Below are positions 16,955-32,897 of a stretch of DNA of 64,000 nucleotides, one piece after another. Position 1 is the first letter of the stretch, and the number at the start of each line of letters is the position of its first letter. The DNA is taken from contig CBDBZU010000004.1 of assembly GCA_965213625.1 (NCBI GenBank), positions 3,584,001 through 3,648,000 of the forward strand, written 5' to 3'. Made by a program: the position numbers and the translations under genes. Source of the stretch: a bacterium. GTDB lineage: Bacteria > UBA8248. The notes below the pieces were generated by a model that was not told the DNA's origin, did not search any database, and was given only the letters and a program-made list of their open reading frames with translations.

Positions 16955-18474
16955 GGGTCTGTTGAAAAACCCGGTGTTGGAAGCGGGCGTTTTGGCGGCT
17001 CACGCGGCGGCGGGGAGGCAGCCCAATCGGCGCGTGAGGGCGCCATGTGCGCGCAGCCGGCGTCTCCGGGCGGCACAGGCCGTCCAGAAGGCGAATATAC
17101 GCGCCGCAAAAGCGGCGGCCAGCCGCTTGAGGTTCACCGCTATCGCCGTCAGGTAGGACTGGATCCGCATGTTCGCAAGGCCCCGGCGCACCGCCCGCCC
17201 CAGTCCGTGCCGGCTCTTCGCCTCGCCGTGGTAGCCCTCCGAGCGCCAACGGTGGCGGCCATAGAGACGCTTCTCCTCCTCCCCCCAGCGCGCATGCCGC
17301 CGACGCGCGCGCAACAGCGCCGGATACGCGTGCGGAATCAACACCGTCCTGCTCGTGCGCGACTTCGACAGACAATCGGGCCTGAGCGCGCAGCCCGCGC
17401 AATCCCGCGTCTTCGATACATAGGAGCGCCCCCGCTCCGTCGCCTGCCGGGGGCGCAGCGTCTTGCCTCCCGGACACTTCACCACCTCGTTGCGCGCGTC
17501 GTAGTGGAACAACTGCAGCGGAACACGGCTCTGGCTGGGTTCCTTCTTCGCTGGTATCAGCGCTTCCACGCCCCGCCGCTCCAATTCGCCGTAAACCTTC
17601 GAGTACGCGTACCCCGAATCCGCCGTCACCATCTCCGGCGTGCGGCCCGACAACTCGCTTACCGCCTCTATATGGGACGCCATCATCTCACGCTCGTTCC
17701 GCGTCCCCTCCGTCACCGACACGTCGAGAACAACACCCCGCTCATCGTCCACCGCCGCGTGCTGCTTGTAGCTCGGCTCGAACCCCGCCCGCGCGCTCTT
17801 GCGCGCAAGCCGCGCGTCCGGGTCCGTCCGGCTCACCGGACCCCCGCCACCGCGGCCTCCTCCCTTCTTCCCGACCTCATCATCGACGGGATTCTCCTGA
17901 ATCACCTTCTCCGCGTGGTGCGCCGCCAGGCTCTCCCAGCTCACGTCCGCGCGTATCAACGAGGCGTCCACGTGCACCACTTCCCCCTTCGCCACATTCG
18001 CCTCCAGGCAAGCCTGCACCGTGCGACGGAATATCTCCTTGAACCGTGCCTCCCCCCAGCGCTGACGTATCCGCGTCAGGCTCGAATGATGCGGCAACTC
18101 CTCGTGCAGCCCGTACCCGATGAACCACCGGATCGCCAGGTGCGCACGCGCCTCGCGAAGCAGGCGACGGTCGTGAACGTAGCCCAGCAACATACCCGCC
18201 AGCATCAAGCGGAGCGCCACCTCCGGGTCGATCCCCGGACGACCGTTATCCGCGCAATAGCAATCCGCCACCTCCTCCCGTAGCCAGCTCAAATCCAGTA
18301 CGTGGTCCACGCGCATCAGGACGTGATCCTCGGGGATCAGCCGTTCCAGCGAACCGGCCACGAACAAATCCATCTGCTCGCGCCTCTTGCTGCCTATCAT
18401 CGAGGGAACTCCCATCTCGGGCGAGATAGTGTCATTACACCCAATCACAATGCCGGGGCTTTTTCAACAGCCCC
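16955..18474 (-). mobile_element. IS1182-family insertion sequence
   Basis: Terminal inverted repeats GGGTCTGTTGAAAAA / TTTTTCAACAGCCCC around one transposase ORF. Confidence 0.9.
17000..18448 (-). CDS. IS1182-family DDE transposase
   Basis: GRPGIDP, PHHSSL, VDAS.I.A, TDPDA, ADSGY, C..C..R..C, RWRSEG; true start may be about 18400. Confidence 0.92.
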   Translation of the reverse strand: MIGCNDTISPEMGVPSMIGSKRREQMDLFVAGSLERLIPEDHVLMRVDHVLDLSWLREEVADCYCADNGRPGIDPEVALRLMLAGMLLGYVHDRRLLREARAHLAIRWFIGYGLHEELPHHSSLTRIRQRWGEARFKEIFRRTVQACLEANVAKGEVVHVDASLIRADVSWESLAAHHAEKVIQENPVDDEVGKKGGGRGGGGPVSRTDPDARLARKSARAGFEPSYKQHAAVDDERGVVLDVSVTEGTRNEREMMASHIEAVSELSGRTPEMVTADSGYAYSKVYGELERRGVEALIPAKKEPSQSRVPLQLFHYDARNEVVKCPGGKTLRPRQATERGRSYVSKTRDCAGCALRPDCLSKSRTSRTVLIPHAYPALLRARRRHARWGEEEKRLYGRHRWRSEGYHGEAKSRHGLGRAVRRGLANMRIQSYLTAIAVNLKRLAAAFAARIFAFWTACAARRRRLRAHGALTRRLGCLPAAA

Positions 18475-19201: not shown

Positions 19202-19687
19202 CTAGAAGTCGCCCTTCTCCTGCAGGTAGGGAATGAGGCCGCCCGCCTCGATCATCGACCAAAGGCCGTCGGGGAACGGTGGGAAGGTAATCGTCTCATC
19301 GCCGGCGCGGGCCTCGCCCGCCATGGGGTCCACTTCTATCTCATCGCCCGCCTGGATGGTGTCGGTATCGCAGGCGATGACAGGCAGCCCCGAATTGATG
19401 GCGTTTCGGTAGAACATGTGCCCGAAGCTCTTCGCGAGCACGCAGCTTACCCCGAGTTCCCTGAGCACGACGGCGGAATCCTGACGGCTGCTGACGAGGC
19501 CAAAGTTCTCCCCCGCCACCAACACGTCGCCTTGCTGCACCTTTTCCGAGAATTCAGGGTCGATTTCCTTGAAGGCGTCGCGCTTTAATTCCTCCAGCGT
19601 AGTGCCCGGCGAGCGGTATTTGACGGACAGATGCACGTCGGTGCTGATGTCGTCCCCGAAGCGGTGTACGCGTCCCCTCATCTCCAA
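19202..19687 (-). CDS. 3-isopropylmalate dehydratase/homoaconitase-family small subunit
   Basis: GDDISTD, AGENFG..SSR, AKSF..FYRNAIN.G, AGGL. Confidence 0.92.
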   Translation of the reverse strand: MEMRGRVHRFGDDISTDVHLSVKYRSPGTTLEELKRDAFKEIDPEFSEKVQQGDVLVAGENFGLVSSRQDSAVVLRELGVSCVLAKSFGHMFYRNAINSGLPVIACDTDTIQAGDEIEVDPMAGEARAGDETITFPPFPDGLWSMIEAGGLIPYLQEKGDF

Positions 19688-19727
19688 AACGTAATCCTCC
19701 TTGCCGTGTGCGCCATCCTCGCAGGCC

Positions 19728-20984
19728 CTATAAAAATTCCCTGGGGTCGGTGATGCGGCCCGTCACGGCGCTCGCCGCCACCGTGGCAGGTGAGCCTAGA
19801 TAGATTTCGGCCTCCTTGCTGCCGAGCCTGCCGGGGAAATTCCGGTTCGCGGAAGATATGGCGCGCTCCCCATCGGCGAGACAGCCGTTTCCCGTCATCG
19901 AGGCGCACGGCCCGCAGGCGGCGGTGAGCACGGCGGCCCCCGCTTCGGCCAAAGCCCCGATGGCTCCGCTCGCTGCGGCGGCCTCGTAAATTTTCTTGCT
20001 CGTGGGCGCGACATAGAATCGAACGCCCGGCGCGATTTTTCTACCGCGCACGATCTTAGCCGCGATCTCGATGTCCTCGAGCCTTCCGTTCGTGCAGGTG
20101 CCCACGAACGCCTGCTGGACGGGAAGGCCCGCGTAGTCCTCTACGGGATGCGCGTTCCCCGTGGCGGGAGGAGCGGCCACGACGGGCGTGAGCGCAGAAA
20201 TATCGAGATGGATTCTCCGGGCGTATACGGCGTCCTCATCCGGCGCCACCGCCCCATCCACGGGCGCGCCGTGCGCCCGCGCCCAGTCGAGCGCCTTCTC
20301 GTCCACCTCCATGACGCCCGTCTTCGCCCCCATGTCGACCGACATGTTCGCGACCGTGAAGCGCGCGTCCATCGAGAGGTCGGCGAGCGCCGCGCCGCCG
20401 TATTCCACCGCCATGTAGTTCGCGCCGTTCTCACCCATCTCGCGCGCGAGCGTCAGTTCCATATCCTTCGAGAACACGCCGTGGGCGAGCGCGCCGGTGA
20501 ACTCCACGCGAACGCTCTCGGGCGTCTTGAACCACAGCTTGCCGGTGGCGTAGGCGGAGGCGATCTCCACGCTCTCCACCGCCACGCCCATCGCGCCCAG
20601 CGCCCCGTATGTGCAGACGTGGCTGTCGCCCCCCACGGTGAGCGCGCCGGGGCCCACGCGGCCCTCTTCGGTCACCACGGTATGGCAGACGCCCGCGCCC
20701 GGCTCGAACACCTCGACGCCGTGCTCCTCGCCGAAGATTCTCAGCTTCTTGTGGTGGTTCGCCCAGAGAACGTCCTGGGCGGGGACGAAATGATCGATGA
20801 TGAAATCGGTCTTCTTCGGGTCCATCCGGAACTCGAAGCCGGCTTCACGGAAGATGTCGACCGCCTTCGGCCCCTTGGCGTCGCCCGCCATGACGTAGTC
20901 GAGCTCTGCGATTACCAGATCGCCCGCCCTGGCCTCGCTTCCTGAGTGCGCGGAGAGGATTTTCTCCGCCATCGTCTGACCCAC
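19728..20984 (-). CDS. 3-isopropylmalate dehydratase/homoaconitase-family large subunit
   Basis: AEKIL, DH, GVCH, DSH, GTCTNGR, CGPC, NRNF.GR.G, SPA; AAGGAG before GTG. Confidence 0.93.
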   Translation of the reverse strand: MGQTMAEKILSAHSGSEARAGDLVIAELDYVMAGDAKGPKAVDIFREAGFEFRMDPKKTDFIIDHFVPAQDVLWANHHKKLRIFGEEHGVEVFEPGAGVCHTVVTEEGRVGPGALTVGGDSHVCTYGALGAMGVAVESVEIASAYATGKLWFKTPESVRVEFTGALAHGVFSKDMELTLAREMGENGANYMAVEYGGAALADLSMDARFTVANMSVDMGAKTGVMEVDEKALDWARAHGAPVDGAVAPDEDAVYARRIHLDISALTPVVAAPPATGNAHPVEDYAGLPVQQAFVGTCTNGRLEDIEIAAKIVRGRKIAPGVRFYVAPTSKKIYEAAAASGAIGALAEAGAAVLTAACGPCASMTGNGCLADGERAISSANRNFPGRLGSKEAEIYLGSPATVAASAVTGRITDPREFL

Positions 20985-21020
20985 GGTGTTCTCCTTGCTG
21001 TATTCCGTAAAGCGATTCAC

Positions 21021-22728: not shown

Positions 22729-23277
22729 TTACTCATCAGGTCGGTGGCGCGAAAGGGCACGAGAGAGGATGTCGCGCGCAGGCCCTGAGCCGTCGAGTGC
22801 GCGCAGTTTTCTGCTCTTTATTTTCCAGCCCTCCGGCGTGCGCGTAAGCTCCCAGCGGTTGGCGAGGACGCGGTGGATGCGGTAGCCGGTGGAGACGCCG
22901 TGGTTGGGCAGTTCGCGCTCCTCACCCTCGGCATCCGGGTGGATGAGCTGCAGGTAGGAGGTGACGCAGGCCGTGTCGCCGTCTAGTTCGACGTGCGGCA
23001 GGCCAGCGAAGTGGGCGAGGCCGCCTTCGATCGCCTCTTGATGCGCGGGCCTTTGGGTAATGGCGGCGATGGCCTCGTTCCCGAGCGTGTAGTCGAGGCT
23101 CTCGCCCCGGTCGAATATGCCCTCCTCGGTGAAGACGGCGCGGGTGTAATCGTCCGCGCCGGTGTCCGCACTCGGTGGATGCGAAGCTATCAAGTTGTAG
23201 ATTTCGAGCCTGTCCTCGATATCGCGCAACCGCGCTTCGAGCGATGCGGCGTCCGGCGCGCTTTCGGCGTCTGTCAT
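22729..23277 (-). CDS. SnoaL/NTF2-like protein
   Basis: LRDIEDRLEIYNL, FTEEG.F, VELDGDTA, L.RT.EGWKI..R. Confidence 0.85.
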   Translation of the reverse strand: MTDAESAPDAASLEARLRDIEDRLEIYNLIASHPPSADTGADDYTRAVFTEEGIFDRGESLDYTLGNEAIAAITQRPAHQEAIEGGLAHFAGLPHVELDGDTACVTSYLQLIHPDAEGEERELPNHGVSTGYRIHRVLANRWELTRTPEGWKIKSRKLRALDGSGPARDILSRALSRHRPDE

Positions 23278-23471
23278 GTCGTCTCTCCCCCGGTGATGGA
23301 ATGTGGGATGAGTATATCGCAAATTTCGGACGTGGTTCCTCCATGGCCGGATTTCATCCTGTGGGGGCGCGTTCCTCCCTTGAGCGTTCGGGCATCCCGA
23401 GTGGCATGCCCGATGAAAAAGACCTCTTATTTAGAGAGTAGAGGGGCCGCCCCTCTCGACTGGAACGGCAA

Positions 23472-23568
23472 CCCCCCTACCCCCCCCCTTGTCAGGGGGG
23501 TAAAGACGATGCCCCCCGACGATGGGGTGAAAGAAAAGCCCCCTGAGGAGGGGGGTAAGTGGGGTTGG
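23472..23568. repeat. Degenerate CCCCCCTT.TCAGGGGGG-type palindromic repeat
   Basis: CCCCCCTACCCCCCCCTTGTCAGGGGGGT followed by inverted CCCCTGAGGAGGGGGG; related copy near 53738. Confidence 0.6.
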
Positions 23569-23879
23569 TAGGTGGCGGGGTTCCTCCTTTCGAGAACAGC
23601 AACCCCTCCCTCCCCGGTTTGATTCCGAATAGTCTCCTCCGCATTAACCCTCATTTGCGCATATCGCGCGTGAAGCAATTTTCGCTACACTGGCGCGCAA
23701 GGTTCGCCGTCCGTGGCGGTTCGACAACTTGCGGGCGGGGGCGTTTCGGGAGAGCATCGAGATGGGAGCAGAAGGAAGGACGATGTGTCGAAGAGGTGAT
23801 GATTTGAGGACTTCGAACAGGGTTTCCCGAACGAGGTTCGCAGGCGCAAAGAGCCCACTCTGAATTCCTGAAAATATCG

Positions 23880-23921
23880 ATAAATATAGATAAATTCACG
23901 GGGTTTTTCGGTAAATTGCTG
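23880..23921. repeat. 42-nt AT-rich repeat, inverted copy at 53085..53126
   Basis: ATAAATATAGATAAATTCACGGGGTTTTTCGGTAAATTGCTG; 38/42 identical to the reverse complement of the second copy. Confidence 0.85.
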
Positions 23922-24106
23922 TAAATTAATTTTTGGGGATATGACGGCCGGGGGCCGCGACGCAGGGGAATTTTGCCATGGCCCGCACCTTCCGCGATAA
24001 CGGCAAATGCGGGGAGCTGCGGGGGTGGATGCGCTTACAGTGAAAAATACGCGCAGGCATCATAACCGGCTGATAATTAACGGGTTTCTCGAAGAAGGAG
24101 AGCGTT

Positions 24107-24469
24107 TTGGACTGGATAGGAGTGGGACTCTTGGTGCTGGGCGCCATCGTGGGCACGCTCAACGCGGCCACAGGCGTGGGCTGGGGCATCATCATGATGC
24201 CCGTGCTCTTCCTCATCCCCGGGCTCACGCCCCAGCAGGCGGTGGCGGTGTCGATTCTCGCCTACCTGTTCAACTCGCTGGTCGCCTCGTTCGAGAACGT
24301 GCGAGGCGGGCTAATCGTTTGGAATTACGCGGTTTATCTCAGCATCGGGGCCATCATCGGTGGGGTCCTGGGCGCGCATCTGCTCCAGACATTCTCGGCG
24401 CTGACGCTCAAGAGAATCGTGGGCGTCGTTGTGATCGGCGCAGGCGCGAGCCTGCTCATCAACCGCTGA
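24107..24469 (+). CDS. Half-size TSUP (TauE/SafE sulfite exporter) family protein
   Basis: G..G.GWG..MP.L, PQQAVA.S, GAIIGG.LGA; only four TM helices. Confidence 0.8.
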   Translation: MDWIGVGLLVLGAIVGTLNAATGVGWGIIMMPVLFLIPGLTPQQAVAVSILAYLFNSLVASFENVRGGLIVWNYAVYLSIGAIIGGVLGAHLLQTFSALTLKRIVGVVVIGAGASLLINR

Positions 24470-24473
24470 GAAG

Positions 24474-24501
24474 AAAACCCCCCGTCAATGACGAGGGGTT
24501 T
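24474..24501. terminator. Probable intrinsic terminator between convergent units
   Basis: AAACCCC-CGTCA / TGACG-GGGGTTT hairpin immediately after the TSUP stop. Confidence 0.65.
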
Positions 24502-24568
24502 CATACTGCTTGCCCCTTATAGGCTTCCGACTGTCATCGCAGAGTAGATAAAGCACACGAAATCAGCG

Positions 24569-24596
24569 ATTTAACGTAATCTGTTTCATGCGATAC
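24569..24596 (-). other. dif-like XerCD recombination site
   Basis: GTATCGCATGA-AACAGA-TTACGTTAAAT; 10/11 match to the E. coli XerD arm, 7/11 to the XerC arm, 6-bp spacer, intergenic. Confidence 0.5.
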
Positions 24597-24605
24597 ATCG
24601 GTCGG

Positions 24606-24746
24606 CTATCCCAGCAGCTTCCTCTTCATCCAGCCCAAAGCCCGCGCCACGGCGGAGAACAGCCCGCCCACTCACGTGGGGCAGGCCGCTTGTTCCGGCG
24701 GCGTTTGGCCCTTATCGTGAATCTTCTCCTGCGTGGGGTTCGGCAT
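24606..24746 (-). CDS. Putative 46-aa selenopeptide with CxxU motif
   Basis: ATG 3 nt after DUF971 stop; MPNPTQEKIHDKGQTPPEQAACPT-U-VGGLFSAVARALGWMKRKLLG*; TGA at 24672-24674. Confidence 0.5.
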
Positions 24747-24749
24747 GAT

Positions 24750-25103
24750 TCAGCCCTTTCCTCCCTGCGAGCTTTCGTCGCGCCCGGGGGCGATATCGTA
24801 AAGATAATCAAACGAATAGATGCCCGCGCCGCAGCCGCCCCGCCAGATGAAATTAATGGCGTAGCGCCCCACCATCTCCACGTTCTCGAGCTCTGTCGGT
24901 CCACTCGGCCCCGAGAGGACGGCGAGGGGGTTTTTCTCGCGCTCCTTGCGCTCCTCCTTGCAGTTCGCGCACGGGCAAAGGGCCGCGAGATAATCGAAGC
25001 CGTAGGCGCTCTTCTCCCCGCTCGCCCACTCGACGCGAAACTCACGGGCGGGCTTGTCCACCGTGAGATCGACGGGATGGGCCTTTTCGACAGGCGCGCT
25101 CAT
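24750..25103 (-). CDS. DUF971 (gamma-butyrobetaine hydroxylase-like N-terminal) protein
   Basis: L..LCPCANC, VGRYAI..W, GIYSF.YL. Confidence 0.88.
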   Translation of the reverse strand: MSAPVEKAHPVDLTVDKPAREFRVEWASGEKSAYGFDYLAALCPCANCKEERKEREKNPLAVLSGPSGPTELENVEMVGRYAINFIWRGGCGAGIYSFDYLYDIAPGRDESSQGGKG

Positions 25104-25137
25104 AAGACGCTGGACTCCTGATGGCGTTTACGGCGCA

Positions 25138-25797
25138 TCATTTCGCCTTCATCCCGTATTTCTCATACTTCTTCGACGAGGAAGAGCTGAGCTTGGCGGA
25201 TTGGGGCGTCTTGAGCTCCAGCAGATAGGGCCGCTCGGCCGAGGTGGCCTTCACGGCGTCCAAGAGCCCCTGCTCATCGCCGTCGCTCTCCCAATCGCCT
25301 TCTTCGAGCTTCACGAAAACGGGCTTGCCCTCCCCGAAATCAAGCGTGGGAACGCCGAAAATGCCCTGCTCGGCCGCGTCCTCATGCTCCTGCGCGATAA
25401 GGGGGATGGTGGCGCCGTTTTTCATGTCCTCCTCCCAGCGATCGACGTCGAGGCCCACTTCCACGGCGATATCGCGCAGAACCAGCTCGCTGGTGATGTC
25501 CTTGCCGTCCCTGTGCCTCGCCCGGTGGAGCGCCACGTGGTACTTGTCGAACTGCGTCTCGCCCTGTAAAGCCGCGCATTTGGCCGCCTGATGCGGTGGC
25601 AGATCCCTGCTCGGGAAAGTCTTATCCTCCCAGGCCTTCCAGTCCTCTCCGCGCGAGGGACCGAAATTCGCCTGCTCGAGCACGAAGGCCTTGTAGTCCA
25701 CATTCAGATCGCTTCTTTTTTCCTGAAGACGAACGAGCCACTCCATGGCCCTGTAGGCGTAAGGTCAGACGTAGCAGTTCCACATGGTGACTTTCAT
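25138..25797 (-). CDS. DsbA/FrnE-family thioredoxin-fold selenoprotein (Sec11)
   Basis: TAAGGAG RBS; MKVTMWNCYV-U-PYAY continues in frame into the 202-aa ORF; GIFGVPT cis-Pro loop; TGA at 25765-25767. Confidence 0.85.
25735..25751 (-). promoter_or_regulatory. SECIS-like hairpin
   Basis: GGGCCAT-GGA-GTGGCTC starting 14 nt after the TGA. Confidence 0.6.
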
Positions 25798-25908
25798 GAT
25801 TTTCTCCTTAACAAATCGGGGCATAAAGAAACATTGCGCGCCAATCATACACCACAAGAACGCCGATGAAAAAGCAGGGCAAAGTCTTTTGAAAATAGCC
25901 GTTTTTCG

Positions 25909-26508
25909 CTAATTTTCAGGCGTGAGCGCCTTGTTTAACAACGCTTCCGCACCCGCGTTCAAGGAAAGCTCCCTGGCGGCCTCCTGCCCGCGCGGAGACA
26001 TTTTTGCCCAAGTTTTCCGCAAGATGCCGATGATTTTCTCCTCATCATGCAGGCGGGAGAAATCCCAGAAATAGCTTTCCAGAAACACCAGACAGGCGAC
26101 GTCCTCGAGCGTCTGGGTTTCCGGGTCTGTCTTCAAGCCCTTTTTTTTCAACAGCATTCGCACACGGTCTATCGTTTCATCGTCGCAACCAACCTTTTCT
26201 AGAATCTCAGCCGCTTTCTCTCCATGAAAATCATAAAGACGGGTCCGCCATTGGTGATATCCCTTACGGCCCTGGGGGTAATCCGAGCGTGGAATCTCCC
26301 ATCGGCGTATATGTTGGCTCCGCACCGCCAGGCGCAGGGCTTCAGAGGCTTGCGGCTCTATGGTATCTAGCCAGTTCGTCATTCTCATCGAATACAATAG
26401 CTCTTTGGGGTAATTTTCGCCCTCGAAACTCTCGGTATTGGGATCTTCAGAATTCGCCTCATCAATAAGAAGCATAGATTCTACAAAACGTTTGGGGTTT
26501 TCCCTCAT
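25909..26508 (-). CDS. DUF4202 family protein
   Basis: ID.AN.EDPN, QHI.RWEIPR..YP.GR.GY..WR, LEDVACLVFL, KTW.KMS. Confidence 0.88.
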   Translation of the reverse strand: MRENPKRFVESMLLIDEANSEDPNTESFEGENYPKELLYSMRMTNWLDTIEPQASEALRLAVRSQHIRRWEIPRSDYPQGRKGYHQWRTRLYDFHGEKAAEILEKVGCDDETIDRVRMLLKKKGLKTDPETQTLEDVACLVFLESYFWDFSRLHDEEKIIGILRKTWAKMSPRGQEAARELSLNAGAEALLNKALTPEN

Positions 26509-26588
26509 GATTTCCACCTTCTCAGTTGCAATAGACACAAATAGAATCATTCCAGACAATACTTGTTTAGAATAAACGCTTGTTCGGG

Positions 26589-26617
26589 TTGACAAAAGCA
26601 GGAAAGAAGAATATTTT
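26589..26617 (+). promoter_or_regulatory. sigma70-like promoter of the cobA-reductase operon
   Basis: TTGACA-17 nt-TATTTT in an AT-rich divergent intergenic region. Confidence 0.6.
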
Positions 26618-26682
26618 TCGATATAGTTAAGTAAATTGCTTAACAATAAAAATATAAACTGACCTGGCTACGGGAATCTCTC

Positions 26683-27492
26683 ATGAACCATGGAAAAGTG
26701 CAGATTGTGGGAGCAGGTCCTGGGGATCCGGACTTGCTTACGCTCAAGGCGGCGAAAGCCCTTACAGACGCTGACGTAGTGGTTTATGACCGTCTCGTGA
26801 ACATTGAAGTTCTTGAACTTTGCCCGGAAAACTGCCAACTCATCTATGCGGGAAAATCAAGTGGCCGACACACCATGAGCCAAAATGACATCAACGAAGC
26901 TCTGATCCATTTCGCTCATCGCGGTTATCAAGTGGTGCGTCTGAAAGGCGGGGACCCTTTCGTGTTCGGTCGTGGCGGCGAGGAGGCGCAAGCACTGGCC
27001 GAAGCCGGCGTTCATTTTGAAATCATACCAGGAATCAGTTCCGCTCTGGCCGTGCCCGCCTATGCCGGAATACCCGTCACACACAGAAACTTCGCCTCGT
27101 CGTTCACGGTCGTAACTGCCCATGAAGACCCCGGCAAACCGGAAACACAGGTGGATTATGCGCATCTGGCGAAGAACAAGGGTACGCTCGTTTTCCTTAT
27201 GGGCGCACGCTCCATCGGACGCATATCAGCCGCCCTGATAGATAACGGCATGTCGAAAGACACGCTTGCCGCCATCATTGAAAATGGAACCACAAACAGA
27301 CAATTAGCCTACCGTTGCACATTGGGAGAAGCATCGAGCCTCGCGCAACGCGAAGAAATATCCCCACCCGCAGTTTTTCTCGTCGGACCCGTCGCCGGCC
27401 TTGAAGACCTCGTGTGGTTCGAAGCCGATGAGAGTCAAGAAATCTCCTGGCGCTGTCCCATGGAAAAATCCCTGAGCAAAGCCATTTCATAA
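26683..27492 (+). CDS. cobA: Uroporphyrinogen-III C-methyltransferase
   Basis: VGAGPGDPDLLT, RLKGGDPFVFGRGGEE, GIPVTHR. Confidence 0.95.
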   Translation: MNHGKVQIVGAGPGDPDLLTLKAAKALTDADVVVYDRLVNIEVLELCPENCQLIYAGKSSGRHTMSQNDINEALIHFAHRGYQVVRLKGGDPFVFGRGGEEAQALAEAGVHFEIIPGISSALAVPAYAGIPVTHRNFASSFTVVTAHEDPGKPETQVDYAHLAKNKGTLVFLMGARSIGRISAALIDNGMSKDTLAAIIENGTTNRQLAYRCTLGEASSLAQREEISPPAVFLVGPVAGLEDLVWFEADESQEISWRCPMEKSLSKAIS

Positions 27493-27560
27493 ATGCCGGG
27501 CTTCAGCCCGGTTCCAGAATTATCATCCAATTAGTACGTAGCTGCTCACGTAAGGAGTAA

Positions 27561-29366
27561 GTGATGCACGAAGAATCACGAAAATCACTGTCTCGGGAAA
27601 CATCGGGCGTCATTCCGGTGATCCCCGAAGAATTCGATGATTTTGAAACACAAGCTACCAGATTCCGTAATGGAGAAATCGATAACGGAGAGTTTCTCCC
27701 ATACCGCCTAAGGCGTGGCGTATATGGCCAGCGTCAGGCGGAAGCACAAATGGTACGCGTGAAAATCCCTTTTGGCGGTTTAAACGCTTCCCAACTCGAA
27801 GCCCTGGGCCGTGTATCGCGAGATTACGCGCCGTTGGGAAAAGGCCACGTAACGACACGGGAAAACGTGCAGTTTCATTTCGTCCCCCTCGACCAGTCCG
27901 CCGAAGTTTTGAGGCTTCTGGGCGAAGTGGGACTAACAACTCGAGAAGCATGTGGAAATTGCGTGAGAAACGTCACCGGCTGCCCCTATGCGGGCGTTTG
28001 CAAGGATCAGGTTTTTGACGCAACACCCTACGCAGGCGGGTTTGCACGTTACTTCGTCCGCAAGGATTTCACACAGGATCTGCCTCGCAAATTCAAGGTG
28101 GCGTTCTCCAGTTGCGCTTCGGACTGCGTGGTCGGCGGAATCCATGATATCGGTTTCATCCCGGTCATCAAGGAGATGGAAGGAACCCCCGTGCATGGCT
28201 TCAAGGTGCTAGTCGGAGGCGGACTCGCCACTTTTGCGCGTACCGCCGAAGTACTATACGAGTTTGTTCCGGTATCCGATTTCCTGAGGGTGAGTGAAGC
28301 CTTAATCCGGGTTTTCGACCAGGCTGCTGAACTCCGCAAATCCCGTTTCAAGGCGCGCATCAAGTTCCTGGTGAGCTGGATAGGAATAGACGGGCTGCGT
28401 GAACGCGTCGAAGAAGAGTTGAAAAAGGACTGGGCAAAAGAACCCGTCAGTCCCGAACCCTATCTTTGGAAAGATGATGAAGGAAGCGACGCTCCACCCA
28501 TCTTGAACACTCTGAACGGAGCGGGGGCTAATCCGAATGGCGACGCGGCGGATTATCACGTTTGGAGAAATACGAACGTCACCGCGCAGAGACAAGAAGG
28601 CTACTTCGCCGTCGAAGTGAAACTACCCTTGGGGAACATCCTTACAGATCAGTTCTTCGCCCTGGCCGACCTCACCCGACGTTTCGCGAGAGGACGAGCA
28701 AGAACGAGTTTCGAGCAAAACCTCGTATTCAGGTGGGTGCGCGCAGGAGAGCTTTATCCCCTGTGGAAAGAACTTCAGCGAATCGGGCTCGCCGAAAAAG
28801 GCGCCCGTGAGATTTCCGACGTGGTCTCCTGCCCGGGAACGGATTCATGCAAACTCGGTATTACCTCCTCCATGGGGCTGGCCAACGCTATTCGTGAAAC
28901 ACTTCATGAAATCGATCAGGACCCTCTCACGCGAGAATTGCACATAAAAATGAGTGGCTGCCCGAATTCCTGCGGACAGCACCACATCGCAAACATCGGC
29001 TTTCACGGGGGGACACTCAGAGCAAACGGCGCAATGCTGCCCGCTTATGAAATTTTTCTTGGCGGTCAATACGAAAATACAGATGGAGAAATCCGAATCG
29101 GCAAACGCATCCAGGTTCGGATTCCCGCAAAACGCGTTCCCGCTGCGCTCAAGAAAATGTTGTCCTACTACCGGGAAAACAGAACTGAGGGCGAGCGATT
29201 CAACGAGTATTTGGATCGCGTGGGCAACGCTTCATTCGAAGACTTGCTGCAGGAATTTCACCTTGCCGGCCAGTTTAATGACGAACCCGATTCTGATTTG
29301 TTCATCGACTGGAGTCAGAAAAAACAATATGTTTTGGAGAGGGGAGAAGGCGAATGTCTAGCCTAG
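27561..29366 (+). CDS. Siroheme/4Fe-4S sulfite or nitrite reductase hemoprotein
   Basis: GVYGQRQ, TTRENVQ, LPRKFK, CPGTDSC, SGCPNSCGQH. Confidence 0.92.
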   Translation: MMHEESRKSLSRETSGVIPVIPEEFDDFETQATRFRNGEIDNGEFLPYRLRRGVYGQRQAEAQMVRVKIPFGGLNASQLEALGRVSRDYAPLGKGHVTTRENVQFHFVPLDQSAEVLRLLGEVGLTTREACGNCVRNVTGCPYAGVCKDQVFDATPYAGGFARYFVRKDFTQDLPRKFKVAFSSCASDCVVGGIHDIGFIPVIKEMEGTPVHGFKVLVGGGLATFARTAEVLYEFVPVSDFLRVSEALIRVFDQAAELRKSRFKARIKFLVSWIGIDGLRERVEEELKKDWAKEPVSPEPYLWKDDEGSDAPPILNTLNGAGANPNGDAADYHVWRNTNVTAQRQEGYFAVEVKLPLGNILTDQFFALADLTRRFARGRARTSFEQNLVFRWVRAGELYPLWKELQRIGLAEKGAREISDVVSCPGTDSCKLGITSSMGLANAIRETLHEIDQDPLTRELHIKMSGCPNSCGQHHIANIGFHGGTLRANGAMLPAYEIFLGGQYENTDGEIRIGKRIQVRIPAKRVPAALKKMLSYYRENRTEGERFNEYLDRVGNASFEDLLQEFHLAGQFNDEPDSDLFIDWSQKKQYVLERGEGECLA

Positions 29367-29806
29367 AAAAACAATTGGAATTTTTGGACGAGAAGCCTGA
29401 GGACCAGATAAAAACGGCGGTATTGCTCGTCGGTCACGGAAGCCGCGCCCAAAATGCCAACGATGCGCTTTTCCGCGTAGTGAACTATTTTCAAAAGGCG
29501 TGGCCACATCGCATATTGAAGGCGGCATTCCTGGAGATCAGCCCCCCCTCCATTCCCGAAGGAATCGATTTGTGCGTCGCAGAAGGCGCTGAAAGAATCA
29601 TTGTCATCCCTTACTTTCTTTTTCGGGGCAATCACGTGGCAGTGGACTTGCCCGTCTTCATTCAAGAAAGCCGGAGGAAATACCCGGATATCGACGTCAT
29701 TTTGGGTCCTCACCTTGGCTTCCATCCCAAGATGATCGAGATCGTAGATGAACGAATCCAACAAGTTCTCGATACGCTAAAATCCGAGGAGAAGGCGCTC
29801 CCATGA
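29354..29806 (+). CDS. Sirohydrochlorin chelatase (CbiX/SirB, short form)
   Basis: GHGSR, AFLE, PYFL..G.H..D. Confidence 0.9.
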   Translation: MSSLEKQLEFLDEKPEDQIKTAVLLVGHGSRAQNANDALFRVVNYFQKAWPHRILKAAFLEISPPSIPEGIDLCVAEGAERIIVIPYFLFRGNHVAVDLPVFIQESRRKYPDIDVILGPHLGFHPKMIEIVDERIQQVLDTLKSEEKALP

Positions 29807-31727: not shown

Positions 31728-31893
31728 GACATAGGGGAAGTTACATAAAAACCTCTGGAATCCACCCTTTATTGCCATGTAGAATGTTATGCATGATGCT
31801 GGGGGCGCAAAAACATCTTGCGGAAGGCAAGACCTTGGGCTAAAGTTGAATAAAAATAATTGGTTTCCCCTCCATCAAGGAGAATTTGACGAC

Positions 31894-32232
31894 ATGATGA
31901 ACATCGGGGAAGAAAAGGCGGATTCTGTAGTCATCGTTGCAATTGAGGGGCGTGTCGACGGCACCACTGCTCCGGAACTTGAAAACCGGATTTCGGAAAT
32001 TGTCGACCGCGGTGATGCCCATGTTCTGCTTGACTGCGCAGGAATGACATATGTCAGCAGCGCCGGGTTACGCATTTTTCTCACAGGCGCCAGAAAATGC
32101 CAACAAAGCGGCGGTAAGTTGTTGATTTGCGCACTACAGCCCGATTGCAAGACAGTGATAGAAACCAGCGGTTTCCATACCGTAATTGATTGCCACGATA
32201 CCCGTGAGGCTGCCCTCGCGGCGGCTTCATAA
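31894..32232 (+). CDS. STAS-domain anti-sigma factor antagonist
   Basis: GRVDG.TA, D....YVSSAGLR, SGF. Confidence 0.9.
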   Translation: MMNIGEEKADSVVIVAIEGRVDGTTAPELENRISEIVDRGDAHVLLDCAGMTYVSSAGLRIFLTGARKCQQSGGKLLICALQPDCKTVIETSGFHTVIDCHDTREAALAAAS

Positions 32233-32243
32233 AGGAGCGCTCC

Positions 32244-32897
32244 ATGCTGACATTTGTCGATGAAATCCTTTTGCTGATGCTGGATGACGAGAAAGGTTCG
32301 TTCCTCCCCATTCGCGAAAGCACGATGGGATATGTGCTCGCGGGCGCGGTTCTCATGGATCTGGCATTTACAAACCGCATCGACACCGACCCCAGCCAGT
32401 TGATGGTTCTGGACAAAACCCCTATTGGGCACTCAGCTCATGACCGGATTCTCGGAAATATAGCGGATTCCAACGAAACCAAAGATACCAAGGCTTGGAT
32501 CGAAACGATTTCCCGAGAGGCCACTGAAATCCGAGAGGAATCCCTGTCCGGTTTGGTCGAAAACGGTATTCTAGAATCCCAGGAAGAAAAGTTCTTGTGG
32601 GTTTTCCGGGCGCGGAGATACCCGATGATCGATGGTCGCGCCGAGCGTGAAGTGAAGCTGCGCATTACCGGCGTGTTACTTACAGATGAAACTCCGGACC
32701 CCAAAGATGTCGCAATTATCTGCCTCGCTGATGCGTGCAATATACTGCGTGACGTATTTTCCGACAGGGAGATCAGCCGGATTCGGCCCCGTATCGATCA
32801 GATACGCAAACTGGACCTCATCGGTCGTGAAGTCAGCGGAGCGATTCAGGAAATCGAACAAGCGATCATGGCGGCGATGACGCATGCCCACCACTAA
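32244..32897 (+). CDS. GPP34 (GOLPH3/Vps74-like) family protein
   Basis: LTF.DE.LLL.LDD..G, LAGAVLMDL, LV..GIL...E.K.LWVF...RYP. Confidence 0.8.
   Translation: MLTFVDEILLLMLDDEKGSFLPIRESTMGYVLAGAVLMDLAFTNRIDTDPSQLMVLDKTPIGHSAHDRILGNIADSNETKDTKAWIETISREATEIREESLSGLVENGILESQEEKFLWVFRARRYPMIDGRAEREVKLRITGVLLTDETPDPKDVAIICLADACNILRDVFSDREISRIRPRIDQIRKLDLIGREVSGAIQEIEQAIMAAMTHAHH

Follow-up and report, generated by a model that had tools for sequence, protein, structure and literature searches.

A conserved three-gene unit of a DsbA-like selenoprotein, a DUF971 protein and a putative CxxU micro-selenoprotein as a possible cytoplasmic selenol/thiol relay

We analyzed a stretch of 64,000 nucleotides (nt) from a bacterium of the GTDB lineage UBA8248 (GenBank assembly GCA_965213625.1, contig CBDBZU010000004.1, positions 3,584,001 to 3,648,000 of the forward strand), which we call the window and whose numbering we use throughout. 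At 24606-25797 it carries three co-oriented minus-strand genes, which encode a DsbA-like protein with a selenocysteine (Sec, U), a DUF971 protein and a CxxU micropeptide, with 34 nt between the first and second gene and 3 nt between the second and third. This three-gene unit is conserved in one lineage. We are highly confident that the DsbA-like gene encodes a real selenoprotein and consider it very probable that the micropeptide gene does so as well; that the conserved unit as a whole, with its two Sec proteins, constitutes a cytoplasmic selenol/thiol relay is the reading towards which we lean. A first-pass annotation, made from the sequence alone, had described three minus-strand open reading frames (ORFs) with these gaps, and its coordinates proved correct in every detail.

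The DsbA-like gene (25141-25797, 219 codons, terminal TGA 25138-25140) starts with an ATG at 25797-25795 behind an AAGGAG and begins M-K-V-T-M-W-N-C-Y-V-TGA-P-Y-A-Y-R-A-M-E-W-L, which places the in-frame TGA at codon 11 (25765-25767) within the motif C8-Y-V-U11-P-Y-A. Without read-through, genetic code table 11 yields only a 202-residue ORF from Met18 (25138-25746). The product matches the Pfam family DSBA (PF01323) with 64.4 bits (E-value 1.6e-17, cut-off 25.6) and has only DsbA-type Pfam matches along its 219 residues; no NCBIfam model is reached by any of the three gene products. A six-frame search found orthologues in 44 of 61 genomes, with 49–100% identity and an in-frame TGA in each. All 44 keep TGA at the Sec position while their terminal stops are divided between TGA (8), TAG (11) and TAA (25), a pattern beyond chance. 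All 89 loci (47 distinct sequences) read C-Y-[V/I]-U-P-[Y/F]-A-Y-R-A, and in an alignment of 12 diverse sequences C8, U11, P12 and C74 are invariant, as is the segment F-G-V-P-T of the cis-Pro loop. The homologues of this protein in the database are N-terminally truncated in 39 of 39 cases (query cover at most 92%, length at most 204 residues). The database entries thus confirm that gene callers truncate the DsbA-like gene and omit the micropeptide, as had been claimed.

According to a 2026 review (PMC13188914), the consensus for a bacterial selenocysteine insertion sequence (SECIS) is a stem-loop after the UGA with a G in a small apical loop 16–37 nt downstream. A SECIS-like hairpin of 7 base pairs with a GGA loop (GGGCCAU-GGA-GUGGCUC, 25735-25751, minus strand) follows 13 nt past the TGA of the DsbA-like gene. 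It was obtained by consensus folding of the 47 distinct sequences from the 89 loci and was also picked up by a stem-loop scan, and its loop begins 21 nt past the UGA, within the range of the consensus model.

In the AlphaFold model of this protein (predicted local distance difference test, pLDDT, 83.9), a thioredoxin fold with a helical insert, U11 lies just before a helix of residues 12–27. There is no signal peptide, the active site begins as early as residue 8, and the DsbA-fold product is cytoplasmic. Cys8 precedes Sec11 by three residues, the usual position of the second cysteine is occupied by alanine, and the C-terminal tail is free of cysteine. A homologue with cysteine at the Sec position exists in DR2335 of Deinococcus radiodurans: Sec11 aligns with the single active-site Cys of DR2335 and precedes helix 1, and therefore stands at the position of the nucleophilic cysteine. 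A more distant DsbA-like ORF (30% identity) with one in-frame TGA is found about 7 kb past the end of the window (G000:C4:3654995-3655537); similar ORFs occur in several relatives, and it may be another DsbA-type selenoprotein.

The proposal of two selenoproteins depended on Sec machinery in this genome, and this is present: the genome encodes selB (388 bits against a cut-off of 242), selA (564 against 268) and selD (333 against 125), together with a tRNA-SeC gene. The selD gene (G000:C4:1518852-1519814) carries its own in-frame TGA, so SelD is itself a selenoprotein here. In the window, TGA ends the DsbA-like and the DUF971 gene as an ordinary stop; therefore the code is not reassigned.

The middle gene, which the first pass had identified as a DUF971 gene with CPCANC, does contain this motif and matches Pfam PF06155 (GBBH-like_N) with 64.4 bits against a cut-off of 22.8. 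It starts with an ATG at 25103 and encodes 117 residues (24753-25103, minus strand, stop TGA 24752-24750), among them C43-P-C45-A-N-C48 and C91. The CPC..C pattern is invariant in the DUF971 alignment of the relatives. Compared with PDB 3LUU, the protein has GGC in place of DGH, which puts Cys91 where the family usually has His; this conserved His of DGH we take, from the GBBH structure, to be the fourth metal ligand of DUF971. We distinguish four families of carriers (f1 to f4): GGC or AGC occupies the DGH position in f1, and the His is kept in f4 and in one f2 locus (L051). Judged from these alignments, the usual Cys3-His site of DUF971 appears to have become a Cys4 site in f1. Two DUF971 proteins of relatives, at L051:3680-4051 (+) and L140:2896-3297 (-), have the canonical His plus a second CPCxxC at the C-terminus.

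Of 51 genomes of the phylum, 49 have a DUF971 match, and in 48 of these the gene is single-copy (the other has two matches); in the source genome, the gene described here is the only copy. It follows the DsbA-like selenoprotein gene, DsbA(U), in 36 of 36 loci of f1 and f2 and in none of the eight loci of f3 and f4. In f4 it lies elsewhere, behind an ORF of about 540 residues, with D-G-H kept.

The third gene (24609-24746, 46 codons, stop TAG 24606-24608) starts with an ATG at 24746, 3 nt past the DUF971 stop, and comprises 24 codons, an in-frame TGA at codon 25 (24674-24672) and a further 21 codons before the TAG; under table 11 it falls apart into two ORFs, of 24 and 21 residues. Its product has a variable acidic N-terminus, the motif C22-P-T-U25, an amphipathic helix and a basic end (WMKRKLLG), and measures 46–71 residues across the relatives. 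Of 36 loci, 28 have a C-x-x-U ORF downstream of DUF971 and seven lack one; the remaining locus (L040) ends too early to tell. Wherever the ORF is present it has its own Shine-Dalgarno sequence and start codon, its frame relative to DUF971 differs between genera, and in one locus (L042) its start overlaps the DUF971 stop as ATGA. A profile search recovered the gene as a single copy with one TGA from 33 of the 51 genomes of the phylum (by family 31/41 in f1, 1/1 in f2, 0/1 in f3 and 0/7 in f4; 6 of 15 genera), always behind DUF971 and never without the DsbA(U)-DUF971 pair. The first-pass annotation hinged on conservation of this frame and of the gene order, and in the genomes of the relatives both are kept across genera.

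The Sec codon of the micropeptide is TGA in 28 of 28 genes, and the stops are TAG in 13, TAA in five and TGA in ten. The motif is mostly CPTU, with CSTU in one genus, CHFU in f2 and WPTU in one genome. In the alignment, the part after Sec forms a helix with a hydrophobic stripe, an invariant V33, a near-invariant W39 and a basic end. Across genera, the reading frame remains open for at least 21 codons past the TGA, and indels there come in multiples of three. For this part of 16 distinct genes, the ratio of non-synonymous to synonymous changes (pN/pS) is 0.56 in this frame, with 0.83 and 1.55 for the two other frames. The micropeptide has no match in Pfam, and 18 diverse copies reach no NCBIfam or Pfam model at E-values up to 1; we regard it as probably a new selenoprotein family. 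A profile search of 5.8 billion proteins returned a single database entry for it, a gene call (P0004) that reads W at the TGA, and a phmmer search returned its own copy and four long repetitive proteins with 6–13 matched stretches, which we took as spurious.

The candidate SECIS hairpin of the micropeptide (UCCGC-CGUGGC-GCGGG, 24641-24656, minus strand) begins its stem 15 nt past the TGA; stems begin 13–16 nt past each UGA in both selenoprotein genes. In all lineages the hairpin is centered on the codon of the invariant Val, and its loop begins 21–27 nt past the UGA. In ten sequences that belong to other genera than g1, pairing holds in 69 of 70 cells, and two of seven pairs are changed on both sides, a covariation score reached by none of 500 column shuffles, to which caveats of relatedness apply. 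The paired changes, from UCG-GUC-UGG to CUG-GUU-CAG, are the same as the amino-acid changes from S-V-W to L-V-Q. In terms of folding, 3–65 of 200 shuffles were equally good outside g1, and 107 of 200 for the hairpin in the window. One micropeptide gene (L033:2539-2694, +), from a genome of the same genus as the source genome, encodes a longer helix and has a strong hairpin with a GGUC loop.

Several other accounts of the third gene were rejected. A single-pass membrane protein is contradicted by a helix too polar and too short for a membrane: the Kyte-Doolittle maximum over 19 residues is 0.91–1.47 in 18 of 18 sequences, below a transmembrane threshold that we take to be 1.6, with hydrophobic moments of 0.27–0.62 and uncharged runs of 10–19 residues. 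DUF971 and the micropeptide share a frame in genus g1, but a single read-through protein of the two is incompatible with five g1 loci that have a TAA between them and with the other frames of other genera. A leader peptide would not be the last gene before a terminator-like hairpin, and no modifying enzyme of the kind expected for the precursor of a ribosomally synthesized and post-translationally modified peptide is linked to the gene.

The likeliest reading of the unit is a cytoplasmic selenol/thiol relay for the metal or Fe-S site of DUF971, and we offer its mechanism tentatively. SelB would insert Sec at the hairpins 13–16 nt past each UGA, and the DsbA-fold enzyme would cycle between the selenol/thiol form and a Cys8-Sec11 selenenylsulfide. 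The micropeptide, whose translation is coupled to that of the second gene, may dock by its helix and act as a free-standing redox arm, in the manner of the CxxxxC tail at the C-terminus of FrnE; thioredoxin reductase, with its GCUG tail, offers a further analogue. The precedent of the FrnE tail makes a separately encoded CxxU arm plausible. Together, the DsbA-fold enzyme and the micropeptide would keep the Cys ligands of DUF971 reduced or loaded, and the same upkeep may extend to an Fe-S or metal client served by DUF971. A more specific version is doubtful at present: the micropeptide would found a Sec-obligate family of micro-selenoproteins and be a separately encoded, trans-acting selenenylsulfide arm that docks by its amphipathic helix on the DsbA-fold selenoenzyme or on DUF971, and would deliver to the Cys4 site of DUF971 either reducing equivalents or a metal or selenium atom that it has bound.

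We know of no biochemistry for DUF971, which is widespread and genetically tied to Fe-S maintenance; the unit offers two defined Sec redox partners for it. If the more specific version of the relay is real, these would be the first biochemical partners of DUF971 and would give a mechanism for the genetic link. This link, which the first-pass annotation had drawn to Fe-S and to Mrp/ApbC-type proteins, is found in the literature as Fe-S maintenance and a connection to HCF101. Mutant-fitness data connect DUF971 with Mrp, BolA and YggX and thereby with Fe-S maintenance, and DUF971 mutants are sensitive to cobalt (bioRxiv 10.1101/072470; PMC12041740). No paper that mentions both DUF971 and a selenoprotein was found in the literature.

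A number of observations weigh against the relay or against one of its parts. The hairpins in the window are no more stable than shuffled sequences (z −0.12 for the DsbA-like gene and +0.98 for the micropeptide), nor is the folding energy of any of three post-TGA stretches better than that of shuffled sequence. In g1 (20 distinct sequences) the micropeptide hairpin is short and 12–151 of 200 shuffles are equally good; in several g1 rows the scan preferred a different hairpin from the one we favor. A homologue with cysteine is the usual validation for a new selenoprotein, and no such form of the micropeptide was found in the 51 genomes of the phylum, by profile in 5.8 billion proteins, or by phmmer in 1.84 billion representatives. 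The N-terminal half of the micropeptide is poorly conserved (pN/pS 0.65), and one copy (L033) has Trp (TGG) where others have the motif Cys. The micropeptide is absent from seven of the 36 DUF971-linked loci, including genomes that are 97–100% complete, and is therefore dispensable. In f4, DsbA(U) stands alone with DUF971 elsewhere; the enzyme therefore does not need DUF971. Finally, the genes on either side of the unit differ from genus to genus and point to no substrate.

The main rival explanation is the handling of metal or selenium: the CxxU motif and the Cys4 site of DUF971 would bind a soft metal (Cu, Hg, Cd, Zn) or carry Se or S, and the DsbA-fold protein would load or release it. The His-to-Cys exchange softens the DUF971 site, cobalt sensitivity of the mutants fits, and siroheme, sulfite/nitrite-reductase, TauE-family exporter and ZnuA/ABC-3 genes are neighbors in some genera. 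CxxU or CU also occurs in several metal-linked selenoproteins listed in Table 1 of the 2026 review (PMC13188914), among them the putative mercuric transport protein, CopZ-like forms and MbdU. We nevertheless consider this explanation unlikely, since the neighborhoods vary and no transporter, regulator or chaperone of metal is consistently linked, and since the active-site geometry of the DsbA fold points first to thiol/selenol exchange.

The DsbA-fold selenoprotein could also be self-sufficient, as a reductase or isomerase that depends on low-molecular-weight thiols, like kappa-class glutathione S-transferase (GST), HCCA isomerase or DsbM, with DUF971 and the micropeptide simply co-located. 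Its gene does stand alone in f3, in f4 and in two metagenome-assembled genomes (MAGs) labelled Deltaproteobacteria and Thermodesulfobacteriota, its U-P-Y-A resembles the single-Cys DFLCPYAW of DR2335, and Foldseek lists DsbM with glutathione, kappa GST and HCCA isomerase among the matches to its model, beside FrnE, YjbH and Rv2466c. Mere co-location, however, accounts poorly for a DUF971 gene that is next to DsbA(U) in every f1 and f2 locus, has moved there from another site and has changed a ligand in f1, and for a micropeptide whose translation is coupled to that of DUF971 and which is confined to loci with the pair; this explanation is quite improbable in our view.

Still less probable is that the third gene is not a selenoprotein gene, in that translation stops at the UGA, so that at most a peptide of 24 residues is made, and the conserved stretch beyond it serves as an RNA element. 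The missing Cys homologue, the weak hairpin in g1 and an N-terminus that varies in length and sequence would all agree with this, but the codon in question is never TAA or TAG although the real stops vary, and the frame beyond it remains open across genera. Amino acids there are similar even where the nucleotides differ, as W39 and V33 illustrate, pN/pS is lowest in this frame, and Rfam has no relevant match within 23000-27000. That the organism decodes TGA as Trp or Gly, in the manner of genetic codes 4 or 25, and neither protein contains selenium, would fit the one public gene call with W at this codon (P0004) but can practically be dismissed, given that TGA terminates the first two genes and many orthologues, that the Sec machinery is complete and that the TGAs sit in C-x-x-U redox motifs at the known catalytic position.

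Returning to the relay, a common transcript of its three genes receives weak support from three signals. A promoter-like site (TTTTCA-17 nt-TATGAT, 25844-25872, minus strand) precedes the start codon of the DsbA-like gene by about 47 nt; the scan found one such site against a shuffle mean of 0.4, and this is a consensus match only and not evidence of function. A terminator-like hairpin of 9 pairs with the loop ATT, followed by TTTTCTT (24471-24498, minus strand), lies between the micropeptide gene and a convergent TauE-family gene; we read it straight from the sequence, and the pattern scan did not list it. In four RNA-type libraries of relatives, contigs 85–98% identical to the window cover parts of the unit, with shares of 0.06–0.07 in the four libraries, where uncovered stretches are uninformative. 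A 1278-nt contig reaches from 24592 to 25797 and so takes in all three genes, though such contigs prove neither transcription nor a single transcript, a further point against the relay.

The relatives are MAGs labelled Nitrospinota, Nitrospinaceae or 'Candidatus Tectomicrobia'. Among 90 ORFs of 17 loci annotated with Pfam, no further conserved partner emerged; DUF4202, siroheme, TauE and RidA-like genes recur in few loci. In the window, the convergent gene is a half-length TauE/SafE (TSUP) ORF of 120 residues (24107-24469, +; profile positions 1–110 of 237), which shares the terminator-like hairpin with the operon; in L132 a full-length TauE gene and a DUF1634 gene directly follow DsbA(U). Directly upstream of the unit, at 25909-29806, lies a DUF4202 gene (-) and, beyond it on the plus strand, genes for a SUMT-like tetrapyrrole methylase, a 601-residue nitrite/sulfite reductase and CbiX. 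DUF4202 is also near the unit in L092, L109 and L119, and siroheme-pathway genes are in L092, L110 and L115. Two loci without DUF971 (L131 and L133, from MAGs labelled Deltaproteobacteria or Thermodesulfobacteriota) encode a C-Y-I-U-P DsbA with 49–50% identity, adjoined by RidA-like and pyruvate kinase genes. Farther away, the window contains a DDE transposase ORF of 482 residues (17000-18448, -; DUF772, DDE_Tnp_1, DDE_Tnp_1_6), which adjoins genes for the large and small subunits of an aconitase-family enzyme (19202-21020), and a STAS-domain ORF followed by a GPP34 (Golgi phosphoprotein 3-like) ORF (31789-32897, +).

In essentially all public gene calls, one selenoprotein gene of the unit is truncated and the other missed, an instance of the systematic mis-annotation of selenoprotein genes. 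The micropeptide would be among the smallest selenoproteins and has no Cys counterpart, so searches that rely on homology to Cys forms cannot find it. Table 2 of BSepDB lists 48–54 selenoprotein genes in three records named Nitrospinota, Nitrospinaceae or Nitrospinae (GTDB UBA8248), which places them among the top ten bacteria in selenoprotein number; the inventory of this lineage is still incomplete.

The first-pass annotation did not recognize the arrangement as a described system, and the literature, as far as its accessible parts reach, has no matching entry. Its components can nevertheless be compared with known proteins. The DUF971 protein has the CxCxxC motif and the fold family in common with other PF06155 proteins, such as PDB 3LUU and the C-terminal domain of HCF101, and differs from them by Cys for His and by its place in a unit with two selenoprotein genes. 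The micropeptide resembles SelW-like proteins, the CC/Se motif family and the dual-CXXC small protein in being short, having C-x-x-U and presumably acting in redox reactions. It differs from these small CxxU selenoproteins in lacking a thioredoxin-like fold, in its 46–71 residues, in that no Cys form of it was found and in matching none of their models. It has no entry in Table 1 of the 2026 review (PMC13188914); an entry may exist in one of two further sources, the BSepDB family table or Haft and Tolstoy 2025.

DsbA-like proteins occur as bacterial selenoproteins, as the first pass had stated: the same table lists form 1 with UxxC and form 2 with DxxUP, the latter fused to a crotonase-family domain. 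Both have the PF01323 fold and a Sec at the N-terminus of helix 1 in common with the DsbA-like protein described here, and in form 2 the Sec is likewise followed by Pro. Unlike form 1, however, our protein reads C-Y-V-U-P-Y-A, with Ala rather than Cys at +3, and unlike form 2 it has Cys for Asp at −3 and no crotonase/enoyl-CoA hydratase domain. Since its partner Cys lies three residues before the Sec and not after it, it is neither of the described Sec forms; this CxxU-P form is absent from Table 1 of the review, though either of the two further sources named above could list it. Two DsbA-like ORFs of a genome from another phylum (L060 and L061, G051), which read D-F-L-TGA or D-Y-L-TGA, fit the DxxU of form 2.

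DR2335 (PDB 7DK9, 7DKA, the latter a C24S mutant) is both the best sequence match (E-value 5.9e-14) and the best fold match (template modelling score 0.72–0.77) to the DsbA-like selenoprotein. Its sole active-site cysteine (DFLCPYAW) aligns with Sec11, and it too has Ala at the usual position of the second Cys; it differs by Cys in place of Sec, by Asp in place of Cys at −3 and by an identity of 24–26%. We rejected an assignment to the FrnE subfamily, given the weak match (E-value 0.008) and the C-terminal tail without Cys. FrnE also differs in that its active site is CxxC, without Sec, and its tail is part of the same chain. It is, however, a cytoplasmic DsbA fold like our protein, and its C-terminal CxxxxC tail (DR_0659; PMC8945050) docks on the active site and has been proposed to regenerate it, which makes this tail the model for the role that the micropeptide may play.

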